DNA of 64,000 nucleotides. It comes from Escherichia coli (GTDB lineage Bacteria; Pseudomonadota; Gammaproteobacteria; Enterobacterales; Enterobacteriaceae). The position numbers were made by a program, and so were the translations under genes. The DNA is taken from the NCBI RefSeq assembly GCF_003334385.1, contig NZ_QOWN01000019.1; one strand, given 5' to 3'. Of this stretch, positions 51,840-56,356 are shown piece after piece (position 1 is the first letter of the stretch; each line of letters opens with the position of its first letter). Under the pieces are notes generated by a model. That model saw only the letters and a program-made list of their open reading frames with translations. It was not told the origin of the DNA and ran no database searches.

Positions 51840-53531
51840 ATGAGATACATCAAATCGATTACACAGCAGAAGCTGAGCTTTTTGCTTGCAATCTATATTG
51901 GCCTTTTTATGAATGGCGCGGTTTTTTACCGCCGCTTCGGCAGCTATGCGCACGATTTTACCGTCTGGAAAGGCATTTCTGCTGTTGTTGAACTGGCCGC
52001 CACCGTACTGGTGACCTTCTTTTTACTACGTCTTCTTTCGCTGTTTGGCCGCCGCAGCTGGCGTATTCTGGCATCGCTGGTGGTGCTCTTTTCCGCAGGT
52101 GCCAGCTATTACATGACCTTCCTTAATGTGGTCATTGGTTATGGCATCATCGCTTCCGTCATGACCACCGATATCGACCTGTCAAAAGAAGTTGTTGGTC
52201 TGAACTTTATTCTCTGGTTAATCGCCGTTAGTGCATTGCCTCTTATCCTTATCTGGAATAACCGCTGTCGCTACACCTTGCTCCGACAACTGCGAACCCC
52301 AGGGCAGCGTATTCGCAGCCTGGCGGTCGTCGTACTGGCGGGTATTATGGTTTGGGCACCGATTCGTTTGCTGGATATCCAGCAGAAGAAAGTGGAGAGG
52401 GCGACCGGCGTTGATTTGCCGAGTTATGGCGGTGTCGTAGCGAACTCTTATCTGCCATCAAACTGGCTTTCTGCGTTGGGGCTGTATGCCTGGGCGCGGG
52501 TCGATGAATCTTCCGATAATAATTCATTGCTTAATCCGGCGAAGAAATTCACTTATCAGGCACCGCAAAACGTTGATGACACTTATGTCGTGTTTATCAT
52601 CGGTGAAACCACGCGTTGGGACCATATGGGTATTTTCGGCTATGAGCGTAATACCACGCCGAAACTGGCCCAGGAGAAAAATCTGGCGGCGTTCCGTGGT
52701 TACTCCTGTGATACCGCAACCAAACTCTCACTGCGTTGCATGTTTGTACGTCAGGGGGGCGCGGAAGATAATCCGCAGCGCACATTAAAAGAACAGAACA
52801 TTTTCGCGGTTCTGAAGCAGTTAGGATTCAGTTCTGACCTCTACGCTATGCAGAGCGAAATGTGGTTCTACAGCAACACGATGGCGGACAACATTGCTTA
52901 TCGTGAGCAGATTGGTGCGGAGCCACGTAATCGTGGCAAGCCGGTAGATGATATGTTGCTGGTAGACGAAATGCAGCAATCGCTAGGGCGCAACCCGGAT
53001 GGTAAGCATCTGATCATTCTGCATACCAAAGGTTCGCATTTTAACTACACCCAGCGTTATCCGCGTAGCTTCGCGCAGTGGAAGCCGGAATGTATTGGTG
53101 TTGATAGCGGCTGTACCAAAGCGCAGATGATCAACTCCTATGACAACTCGGTGACCTATGTGGATCACTTTATCTCCAGCGTGATTGATCAGGTTCGCGA
53201 TAAGAAAGCGATTGTGTTCTACGCAGCTGACCACGGTGAGTCAATTAATGAACGCGAGCACCTGCACGGCACGCCGCGTGAACTGGCACCGCCGGAGCAG
53301 TTCCGCGTACCGATGATGGTCTGGATGTCAGATAAATATCTGGAAAATCCGGCCAATGCGCAGGCGTTTGCGCAGCTGAAAAAAGAAGCCGACATGAAAG
53401 TGCCACGCCGTCACGTAGAGCTGTACGATACCATCATGGGTTGTCTTGGCTATACTTCACCGGATGGTGGAATTAACGAAAACAACAACTGGTGTCACAT
53501 CCCGCAGGCAAAAGAGGCAGCGGCTAACTAA
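51840..53531 (+). CDS. eptB: Kdo2-lipid A phosphoethanolamine transferase (563 aa)
   Basis: Native start [14 protein letters not shown]; N-terminal TM domain plus sulfatase-like domain. Confidence 0.9.
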
Positions 53532-53581
53532 GCGGCCTGCTGACTTTCTCGCCGATCAAAAGGCATTTTGCTATTAAGGGA

Positions 53582-53610
53582 TTGACGAGGGCGTATCTGC
53601 GCAGTAAGAT
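53582..53610 (+). promoter_or_regulatory. proK promoter (-35 TTGACG, 17-bp spacer, -10 TAAGAT)
   Basis: TTGACG 53582-53587, TAAGAT 53605-53610, about 12 nt before the mature tRNA 5' end. Confidence 0.75.
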
Positions 53611-53622
53611 GCGCCCCGCATT

Positions 53623-53699
<77 letters not shown>

Positions 53700-53706
53700 A
53701 ATTCGA

Positions 53707-53735
53707 AAAGCCTGCTCAACGAGCAGGCTTTTTTG
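53707..53735 (+). terminator. rho-independent terminator of proK
   Basis: Perfect 11-bp stem aaagcctgctc / gagcaggcttt, loop aacg, T-run. Confidence 0.9.
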
Positions 53736-53789
53736 CATCTGCAGCTCATGAGGATGAGAACCTCCGGGGGCAGGGAGGTTCGACTCGAC

Positions 53790-53875
53790 GTAGGCCTGAT
53801 AAGACGCGTCAGCGTCGCATCAGGCAAATGTGCCGGCCATTGTCGGATGCGGCGCGACCGCCTTATTCGACCTAC
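53790..53875. repeat. REP/BIME cluster upstream of dppA
   Basis: gtaggcctgataagacgcgtcagcgtcgcatcaggc ... gccggccattgtcggatgcggcgcgaccgccttattcgacctac. Confidence 0.75.
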
Positions 53876-54441
53876 ACGACACACATTTCCCTGCCAAATT
53901 TGCGCCCCATATCTCACTATCCATTAACGGATTTGTGACAGAAACCATTGTCTTTTTTTATATTTGCTTAAATCTTTTTTTGCGTTACTTATGGCTGGCC
54001 CTGGCATTTTCCGCTGTGCGTTTTAGCGTTCATGGTATTAATCGCTCAGATATCCACCTTTTCCTCAGATTTTTTTCATTAAATGCATAAAACTTAATCA
54101 CCAAATGTTGCTAAATATTAAGCTGATTGTTCTGGTCATGTTGGAGTAGCACAAATTTCTCTGCTGCAAATAGCTGTTTGAAGTTTTTTTAATCTTTGTT
54201 TGTGGATTCTCACCGTTGGTGTAAATCCCGGTTGGCTGTATTGACGTTTTCACATTCTGTTGACAGATTGTAGGTCACGAGGGGCATTTTATGGAGGATC
54301 CGCACTGTTACACTGATGTTAATTAGTACGGCATCCCCACCTCATAACGTTGACCCGACCGGGCAAAAAACAAAAAAGGTCAGGCAGCGACAACCCACTG
54401 CAAAGGGTTAAAACAACAAACATCACAATTGGAGCAGAATA

Positions 54442-56049
54442 ATGCGTATTTCCTTGAAAAAGTCAGGGATGCTGAAGCTTGGTCTCAGCCTGGTGGCTAT
54501 GACCGTCGCAGCAAGTGTTCAGGCTAAAACTCTGGTTTATTGCTCAGAAGGATCTCCGGAAGGGTTTAACCCGCAGCTGTTTACCTCCGGCACCACCTAT
54601 GACGCCTCTTCCGTCCCGCTTTATAACCGTCTGGTTGAATTTAAAATCGGCACCACCGAAGTGATCCCGGGCCTCGCTGAAAAGTGGGAAGTCAGCGAAG
54701 ACGGTAAAACCTATACCTTCCATCTGCGTAAAGGTGTGAAGTGGCACGACAATAAAGAATTCAAACCGACGCGTGAACTGAACGCCGATGATGTGGTGTT
54801 CTCGTTCGATCGTCAGAAAAACGCGCAAAACCCGTACCATAAAGTTTCTGGCGGCAGCTACGAATACTTCGAAGGCATGGGCTTGCCAGAGCTGATCAGT
54901 GAAGTGAAAAAGGTGGACGACAACACCGTTCAGTTTGTGCTGACTCGCCCGGAAGCGCCGTTCCTCGCTGACCTGGCAATGGACTTCGCCTCTATTCTGT
55001 CAAAAGAATATGCTGATGCGATGATGAAAGCCGGTACACCGGAAAAACTGGACCTCAACCCAATCGGAACCGGTCCGTTCCAGTTACAGCAGTATCAAAA
55101 AGATTCCCGTATCCGCTACAAAGCGTTTGATGGCTACTGGGGCACCAAACCGCAGATCGATACGCTGGTTTTCTCTATTACCCCTGACGCTTCCGTGCGT
55201 TACGCGAAATTGCAGAAGAATGAATGCCAGGTGATGCCGTACCCGAACCCGGCAGATATCGCTCGCATGAAGCAGGATAAATCCATCAATCTGATGGAAA
55301 TGCCGGGGCTGAACGTCGGTTATCTCTCGTATAACGTGCAGAAAAAACCACTCGATGACGTGAAAGTTCGCCAGGCTCTGACCTACGCGGTGAACAAAGA
55401 CGCGATCATCAAAGCGGTTTATCAGGGCGCGGGCGTATCAGCGAAAAACCTGATCCCGCCAACCATGTGGGGCTATAACGACGACGTTCAGGACTACACC
55501 TACGATCCTGAAAAAGCGAAAGCCTTGCTGAAAGAAGCGGGTCTGGAAAAAGGTTTCTCCATCGACCTGTGGGCGATGCCGGTACAACGTCCGTATAACC
55601 CGAACGCTCGCCGCATGGCGGAGATGATTCAGGCAGACTGGGCGAAAGTCGGCGTGCAGGCCAAAATTGTCACCTACGAATGGGGTGAGTACCTCAAGCG
55701 TGCGAAAGATGGCGAGCACCAGACGGTAATGATGGGCTGGACTGGCGATAACGGGGATCCGGATAACTTCTTCGCCACCCTGTTCAGCTGCGCCGCCTCT
55801 GAACAAGGCTCCAACTACTCAAAATGGTGCTACAAACCGTTTGAAGATCTGATTCAACCGGCGCGTGCTACCGACGACCACAATAAACGCGTTGAACTGT
55901 ACAAACAAGCGCAGGTGGTGATGCACGATCAGGCTCCGGCACTGATCATCGCTCACTCCACCGTGTTTGAACCGGTACGTAAAGAAGTTAAAGGCTATGT
56001 GGTTGATCCATTAGGCAAACATCACTTCGAAAACGTCTCTATCGAATAA
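54442..56049 (+). CDS. dppA: dipeptide ABC transporter periplasmic binding protein (535 aa)
   Basis: Signal peptide; SBP family 5 sequence. Confidence 0.95.
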   Translation: MRISLKKSGMLKLGLSLVAMTVAASVQAKTLVYCSEGSPEGFNPQLFTSGTTYDASSVPLYNRLVEFKIGTTEVIPGLAEKWEVSEDGKTYTFHLRKGVKWHDNKEFKPTRELNADDVVFSFDRQKNAQNPYHKVSGGSYEYFEGMGLPELISEVKKVDDNTVQFVLTRPEAPFLADLAMDFASILSKEYADAMMKAGTPEKLDLNPIGTGPFQLQQYQKDSRIRYKAFDGYWGTKPQIDTLVFSITPDASVRYAKLQKNECQVMPYPNPADIARMKQDKSINLMEMPGLNVGYLSYNVQKKPLDDVKVRQALTYAVNKDAIIKAVYQGAGVSAKNLIPPTMWGYNDDVQDYTYDPEKAKALLKEAGLEKGFSIDLWAMPVQRPYNPNARRMAEMIQADWAKVGVQAKIVTYEWGEYLKRAKDGEHQTVMMGWTGDNGDPDNFFATLFSCAASEQGSNYSKWCYKPFEDLIQPARATDDHNKRVELYKQAQVVMHDQAPALIIAHSTVFEPVRKEVKGYVVDPLGKHHFENVSIE

Positions 56050-56085
56050 TTAAAAGCCATACAAGACTGATGGCAAAGGCAAAAA

Positions 56086-56190
56086 TGCCTGATGCGCTCC
56101 TCTTATCAGGCCTACGAAAATTCTGCAATGTATTGAATTTGCACGATTTTGTAGGCCGGATAAGGCGTTAACGCCGCATCCGGCATAAAC
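56086..56190. repeat. REP/BIME cluster between dppA and dppB
   Basis: gcctgatgcgctcctcttatcaggcctac ... gtaggccggataaggcgttaacgccgcatccggc. Confidence 0.8.
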
Positions 56191-56356
56191 AAAGCGCACT
56201 TTGTCAACAATCTGTATACCCGGTGGCGCTGTGCCTCTGCGTGCAGCGCCATCCGGCAGCAATACTTCATTCCCTGTCCGATAAGGGCGGGAATTGATTT
56301 GTGAGCAATACAGACACGCAGTTCCAGGCTGCGGGTCACTATAGAGAATCCGGGTT

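Follow-up and report, generated by a model that had tools for sequence, protein, structure and literature searches.

How much of the non-coding DNA in front of dppA is leader, and what is the remainder? The question is raised by a stretch of 64,000 nucleotides of the Escherichia coli chromosome (the window), in which the gene order is eptB, proK, a REP pair, 569 non-coding bp and dppA, with dppB after dppA. The initial annotation had described about 500 bp of non-coding sequence between the REP cluster and dppA and had read it as one long, AT-rich and post-transcriptionally regulated leader. The gap itself was borne out, as 569 bp separate the REP end from the dppA ATG and 502 bp make up the interval 53940–54441, and the runs that had been pointed out, caaaaaacaaaaaag and the C/A-rich AAAACAACAAACATCACAA before the start codon, are both present. 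We propose, with a probability of roughly 90%, that the gap has a three-part arrangement: distal conserved DNA, a sigma-70 promoter and a 165-nt leader regulated by the small RNA GcvB (Table 1).

A 1.1-kb query spanning the region matched all of the 5426 complete E. coli genomes (5426/5426), and the annotation beneath the matches was eptB, tRNA-Pro and dppA. K-12 MG1655 has no annotated feature between proK and dppA, and the other complete E. coli genomes have none in the gap from the REP end to the dppA ATG. Over 53681–54441 the window differs from K-12 by a single base, at 54200, and the dppA leader is identical in the two. Published K-12 coordinates were converted on the basis that window position p equals NC_000913.3 position 3707705 + (54442 − p). 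For the comparison between species, 80 Enterobacteriaceae dppA loci were collected and the 620 bp upstream of the gene were aligned; counts out of 81 refer to the Enterobacteriaceae sequences compared.

The proK side of the locus is variable. In K-12 and many other strains an additional repeat unit of ~170 bp, labelled "RtT sRNA" by PGAP, follows directly after proK; the window carries the short form without it (53735–53792), and its proK-dppA spacer is 742 bp long versus 910 bp in K-12. A terminator of proK, consisting of a hairpin and T6 (GCCTGCTC-AAC-GAGCAGGC-TTTTTT), is found at 53710–53734, despite which a terminator scan over 53500–54600 listed none. On the minus strand the REP/BIME pair at 53793–53872 exceeds the naRNA4 gathering threshold, and its plus-strand score falls short of it; this is a generic property of REP elements and does not denote a specific gene. 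The pair is not kept between genera in the aligned loci.

Table 1. Positions of the elements of the proK-dppA region in the window
Feature	Position	Strand	Basis
proK, tRNA-Pro(CGG)	53623–53699		ARAGORN
REP/BIME pair, bounding the locus on its upstream side	53793–53872		Rfam naRNA4: 69 bits minus, 51 bits plus strand
Distal AT/T-rich DNA upstream of the promoter, probably a regulatory platform for several proteins	53925–54240 (K-12 3707907–3708222)	.	Conservation
−35 hexamer TTGACG, dppA promoter	54241–54246	+	Identical in 81/81 sequences; position fits start 54277
Extended −10, TG-A-CAGATT	54261–54269	+	CAGATT (54264–54269) identical in 81/81; 7 nt upstream of start
dppA transcription start (A)	54277	+	SMRT-Cappable-seq; dppA::gfp fusion 5′ end −165
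dppA 5′ untranslated leader, 165 nt	54277–54441	+	Mapped start; −165 fusion end
Conserved hairpin with A-rich loop	54348–54389	+	In minimum-free-energy fold
Loop of this hairpin, the caaaaaacaaaaaag run; candidate distal-face (A-R-N) site for Hfq	54364–54378	+	
GcvB R1 pairing site (−30 to −13)	54412–54429	+	Pairing with GcvB nt 64–82; cross-species retention
Translation enhancer of four ACA motifs (ACAACAAACATCACA), masked on GcvB pairing	54413–54427 (−29 to −15)	+	Sequence; Salmonella experiments
Shine-Dalgarno GGAG	54431–54434	+	Inside invariant TGGAGCAGAA block, 7 nt before ATG
dppA CDS	54442–56049	+	NCBIfam NF043070 DppA equivalog, 1178 bits vs cutoff 1005

Transcription start and promoter of dppA

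The start of dppA transcription has been mapped in K-12. SMRT-Cappable-seq (PMC6131387, supplement 3) reports one dppA (b3544) transcript, NC_000913.3 3705889–3707870 on the reverse strand, with 3960 start reads in M9. Its start at 3707870 lies 165 nt from the dppA ATG at 3707705 and corresponds to position 54277 of the window. The E. coli dppA leader used by Urban and Vogel in their cloning also begins at −165 (PMC1807950, table 1), so that two independent sources give this start. A Salmonella fragment used for Hfq binding begins at −163 (PMC2515195), in agreement with the start-to-ATG distance of the Salmonella loci in the alignment. The start-site tables of PMC3415461 and PMC4782308 hold no matching coordinates among the entries listed.

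Upstream of the mapped start, the two hexamers stand at the right spacing for a sigma-70 promoter. The 17-bp spacer between TTGACG and CAGATT is kept in length in 81/81 sequences, and the TG that precedes the −10 element at −15/−14 is invariant in the same 81. With a median identity of 94%, the 36-bp promoter core gives the highest value of the region. As TTGACG-17-CAGATT scores 8/12, it is missing from a simple promoter scan. Two TTGAC motifs (TATTGACG and TGTTGACAG) are found 19 bp apart within 54241–54269; both are invariant, and the second, TGTTGACAG, overlaps the extended −10. The paired motifs may form a direct-repeat operator besides the promoter.

A leader that takes up the whole ~500 bp would call for a distal promoter at about 53935–53964 and a start near 53971. 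A promoter-like sequence, GTGACA-18-TATATT (10/12 matches), does exist at 53935–53964, where the GTGACA part is kept in 63/81 sequences and the 18-bp spacer in 77/81. However, a canonical −10 (A at position 2 and T at position 6) is found at this site in just 17/81 species, and the 3960 capped reads obtained in M9 begin at 54277, with no start between 3707900 and 3708599 among those listed in the PMC6131387 supplement. In Salmonella, too, the cDNAs recovered by Hfq co-immunoprecipitation start at the proximal +1 and cluster from there into the signal-peptide codons (PMC2515195). We regard a single long leader as unlikely. GTGACA and the flanking CCATTG, which stand at the beginning of the conserved block, are widely kept, and the −10 part is not. 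Judged from its sequence, the 53935–53964 site resembles a protein-binding site more closely than it does a promoter.

The mapped start, with which a comparison had been suggested in the initial annotation, therefore lies 165 nt upstream of the ATG and not ~500 nt. Of the 502 bp, the mapped leader accounts for no more than 165, and the AT-rich two thirds are located upstream of the promoter. The term "AT-rich leader" had merged two things, since low GC is confined to 53925–54240 (36.1%) while the leader itself is A/C-rich with 46.1% GC. It would be wrong to conclude from a long gap in front of a gene that its leader is long, because two thirds of the gap are promoter-upstream DNA in the present case.

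The downstream end of the transcript was located by the same M9 SMRT-Cappable-seq data (PMC6131387). K-12 position 3705889, at about 56258 of the window, is the end of 1944 of the 3960 dppA transcripts and lies 209 nt past the dppA stop; much of the dppA mRNA is therefore monocistronic. The dppA-dppB spacer (56050–56356) is unalignable between genera, with 25% identity and lengths of 106–333 bp.

The GcvB-regulated leader

The proximal part of the gap behaves as expected of a small-RNA target. The C/A-rich stretch AAAACAACAAACATCACAA directly precedes the Shine-Dalgarno sequence GGAG, and GcvB nt 64–82 pair with 54412–54429 over 18 bp with one bulge, which is the best site of the intergenic region. 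This C/A-rich, R1-complementary site stops 1 nt short of GGAG and is positioned at or beside the ribosome-binding region, where pairing would block initiation. The published GcvB site on b3544, a 34-nt string at −41 to −8 (PMC3415461, supplement 7), is identical to 54401–54434 of the window and encloses 54412–54429. The statement in the initial annotation that dppA is a GcvB target was correct, and the pairing check proposed there revealed a conserved pairing region. In 81/81 enterobacterial sequences, the segment −45 to −6 forms 9–14 contiguous Watson-Crick pairs with R1, i.e., at least 9 in every sequence. The median duplex energy of this segment is −27.1 kcal/mol versus −12.4 for a control segment, and it contains a median of 4 ACA motifs (81 sequences each). 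R1 pairing is retained although this part of the leader carries many substitutions and indels; the E. coli R1 sequence was applied to every species in this comparison.

The energies must be read with care. Of 1000 dinucleotide shuffles of the leader, 59 equal the real sequence in their pairing with R1, and a 12-bp helix, with G-U pairs counted, is common among the shuffles. Since it is the base composition that carries the signal, tests of duplex energy and helix length against shuffles do not discriminate here. What speaks for GcvB is thus not the energy but the published experiments together with retention across species. A duplex calculation between the 541-nt region and full-length GcvB gave a meaningless 260-nt pairing and was replaced by sliding windows against R1 only. 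The gcvB gene is not in the 64-kb window, and its presence in this strain is assumed; in K-12 it is annotated at 2942696–2942901.

Experiments on this site have been published for several organisms. GcvB represses dppA::gfp 3.2-fold, and 1.6-fold without Hfq (PMC1807950). E. coli and Y. pestis strains deleted for gcvB show dppA::lacZ levels about 5-fold and 7-fold higher, respectively. The dppA mRNA is listed as a verified R1 target, backed by RIL-seq, CLASH and MAPS. In Salmonella, deletion of the 15-nt ACA segment lowered dppA-lacZ by 96%, and randomisation of the ACAs left 0.5–5% of the activity (PMC3879156). The suggestion of a post-transcriptionally regulated leader thus agrees with published GcvB and Hfq control. 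This control of the dppA site is already in the literature, and the finding is mostly an ordinary one: the GcvB-regulated dppA leader is a textbook small-RNA target, the confirmation of which adds nothing new. Such leaders are recognisable from composition alone, as they were in the initial annotation.

The leader is ~159–179 nt long in most of the 80 species and has a median identity to the window of 66%. Its single-sequence fold is modestly better than those of shuffles (z = −1.95), whereas RNAalifold on 46 leaders found almost no common structure (−1.5 kcal/mol, 4 pairs). A search of 53873–54441 against Rfam at E ≤ 1 returned no match. Neither a conserved covarying structure nor a match to a curated family, as would denote a riboswitch, an attenuator or a thermosensor, was found for the interval.

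One local element was observed in the leader, the hairpin at 54348–54389. Across 46 species, 88.5% of its cells are paired versus 15–52% in slid controls, and compensatory changes occur at 3 pairs. Its loop, AAAAAACAAAAAA, is unpaired with a probability of 0.98, and the A-rich character of the loop is kept across genera. We infer that this loop (54364–54378) is likely a distal-face site for Hfq. The Salmonella leader fragment −163 to +73, taken as a whole, binds Hfq at 50 nM or less (PMC2515195). An extra stable hairpin, GCCUUCGGGC, is present in the leaders of about 80% of species at the equivalent of window positions 54342–54361. This GCCUUCGGGC hairpin is missing from Escherichia, Salmonella and Citrobacter. 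Leader insertions of ~55–125 nt were found in 7/80 species.

The course of events at the locus can be pictured as follows. Several proteins bound to the non-transcribed T-rich DNA at 53925–54240, upstream of the promoter, would tune transcription, which the sigma-70 promoter at 54241–54276 directs from 54277. At the 3′ end of the resulting leader, the four ACA motifs form a single-stranded C/A-rich translation enhancer beside the Shine-Dalgarno sequence. GcvB, which depends on Hfq, is made when amino acids are plentiful, and its G/U-rich R1 pairs at −30 to −13, masking the enhancer and the ribosome-binding region. This masking leads to less DppA synthesis. The A-rich loop of the conserved hairpin further upstream would probably recruit Hfq.

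The conserved block upstream of the promoter

The sole unexplained item at the locus is the conserved block that precedes the promoter. In the aligned 620 bp, conservation sets in abruptly near 53925. The block at 53925–54240 contains 41% T, and its GC content of 36.1% places it among the lowest 1.7% of 316-nt windows. Its median identity to the window across the 80 Enterobacteriaceae species is 72%, compared with 27% on the REP side, 25% in the dppA-dppB spacer and 64% at the third codon positions of dppA. From 53982 to 54341, 360 bp are free of indels in every one of the 80 species, while the DNA on either side is indel-rich; this stretch takes in 295 bp ahead of the dppA transcription start plus 65 nt at the 5′ end of the leader. 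The pieces of the block that are invariant include an AGCA-N10-TGCT palindrome (54147–54166, TAGCA-N10-TGCTG with its flanking bases), AGCATTTT (54003–54010), TTCTCACC (54207–54214) and four T7 runs. The block is single-copy and unannotated in 5423/5426 E. coli genomes, and blastn found no second copy anywhere in E. coli. A divergent promoter cannot explain the block, as its two flanking genes are co-directional.

Strong conservation, ~300 bp without indels and the presence of several short ORFs would all be compatible with an independent product, either a small RNA or a small protein. The coding version is opposed by the ORFs themselves, none of which is intact in more than 46 of the 80 species, the best one starting with TTG and overlapping the invariant promoter, and by the conservation profile, which lacks 3-nt periodicity (power 0.04). 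As for an RNA, the Rfam search was empty, the block folds no better than shuffles on either strand (z = −0.04 and +0.98) and RNAalifold yields no consensus structure (−3.9 kcal/mol; covariation term −0.04). Moreover, no terminator-like hairpin with a U-tract was seen on reading the sequence, and no transcript starts within the block among the starts listed in PMC6131387. An independent product is accordingly very improbable.

The absence of fold, consensus structure and covariation from the distal region (z = −0.04) also speaks against its being part of a long leader. There is one sequence match that could favour such a leader: the invariant ATTTCTCTGCTGCAA (54155–54169) is complementary at 12/15 positions to the ribosome-binding region TTGGAGCAGAATAAT (54429–54443). 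This pairing is beyond covariation testing, because both sides are invariant. As an anti-Shine-Dalgarno element, ATTTCTCTGCTGCAA could matter only if it were transcribed. A bolder variant may be envisaged in which, under some condition, the block is transcribed from 53935–53964 and 54155–54169 then acts as an anti-Shine-Dalgarno sequence against 54429–54443. On the other hand, the G/T-rich pieces of the distal region that are complementary to the C/A site, as a long leader might use, are not conserved. The idea of a GcvB mimic in cis was dropped as well, since these G/T-rich segments are not kept in other genera.

It is equally conceivable in principle that the block is kept for a reason unrelated to dppA, for instance 3′ processing or termination of proK, or chromosome structure. 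The block sits between two co-directional genes, and REP elements, like AT-rich DNA, can be bound by nucleoid proteins. Nevertheless, proK possesses its own hairpin and T6 terminator, and the segment from this terminator to 53925 is not conserved (27%). Species that have no proK within 2 kb upstream keep the block with dppA at a fixed distance, and in some E. coli strains the proK side is exchanged while the sequence from ~53792 on is retained. A role apart from dppA is hardly credible on these grounds.

We therefore return to the reading of the block as promoter-upstream DNA of dppA. Its fixed length suggests that several proteins are bound in a set geometry, and from its conservation the block is probably a sequence-specific protein-binding platform of fixed geometry for the dppA promoter. 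That the 316 bp constitute a control module upstream of dppA, hitherto undescribed and rigid in position, in the form of a multi-site nucleoprotein platform, is a tentative proposal and a rather doubtful one at present. The conservation profile has a ~29-bp component, as judged against a naive null. The Lrp consensus YAGHAWATTWTDCTR has 4 matches at 12/15 or better versus 1.3 in shuffles (P about 0.07). A consensus scan of the block for 15 regulators (Lrp, CRP, FNR, IHF, ArcA, Fis, Nac, ArgR, PhoB, NtrC, Cra, PurR, TyrR, MetJ and GcvA) was indecisive. A literature search for a published architecture of the dppA promoter or for a link to Lrp gave nothing specific, and the main text of the Lrp genomic SELEX paper does not mention dpp.

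Two further candidates were rejected. A sigma-54 reading of TGGCATTTTCCGCTG was dropped by eye, as GG and GC stand 2 nt too close together and AG replaces GG in most species. A MarA ChIP peak at Salmonella dppA was not taken as evidence, there being no motif. Transcription of dppA is controlled by growth phase and amino acids. The factors that bind the distal block, if identified, would explain how this transcription is set.

Relation to known GcvB targets and upstream regulatory regions

The closest relative of the system described here is the GcvB-dppA pair of E. coli K-12 and Salmonella, which has the same −165 start, the same C/A site, the same four ACA motifs and the same Shine-Dalgarno sequence. 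From the pair of E. coli K-12 no difference was found, and the window carries this very locus from a different E. coli strain. With the other R1 targets, oppA, gltI, yifK, argT and livJ/K, dppA shares the pairing of R1 with a C/A-rich element at or upstream of the Shine-Dalgarno sequence. The dppA site lies wholly upstream of the Shine-Dalgarno sequence, whereas that of oppA spans the AUG (−18 to +21, PMC3415461 supplement 7). In dppA as in the other R1 targets, the element bound by R1 also serves as a translation enhancer; dppA differs from them in its four clustered ACA motifs.

A truly long regulatory leader is known from rpoS, where it measures about 567 nt. Leaders of the rpoS type and the dppA locus have in common a large non-coding gap and control by small RNA and Hfq. 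Unlike in rpoS-like leaders, only 165 nt are transcribed at dppA and the remainder is promoter-upstream DNA.

For this remainder, the upstream regions of ilvIH and gltBDF offer a comparison, where Lrp, IHF or other nucleoid-associated proteins occupy extended arrays (compare PMC1784095). The dppA block differs from these arrays in that its matches to the Lrp consensus are only weakly enriched. In other respects it resembles arrays of the ilvIH and gltBDF type: in both, conserved AT-rich DNA extends 200–300 bp upstream of the promoter of an amino-acid or peptide-related operon, with rigid spacing.
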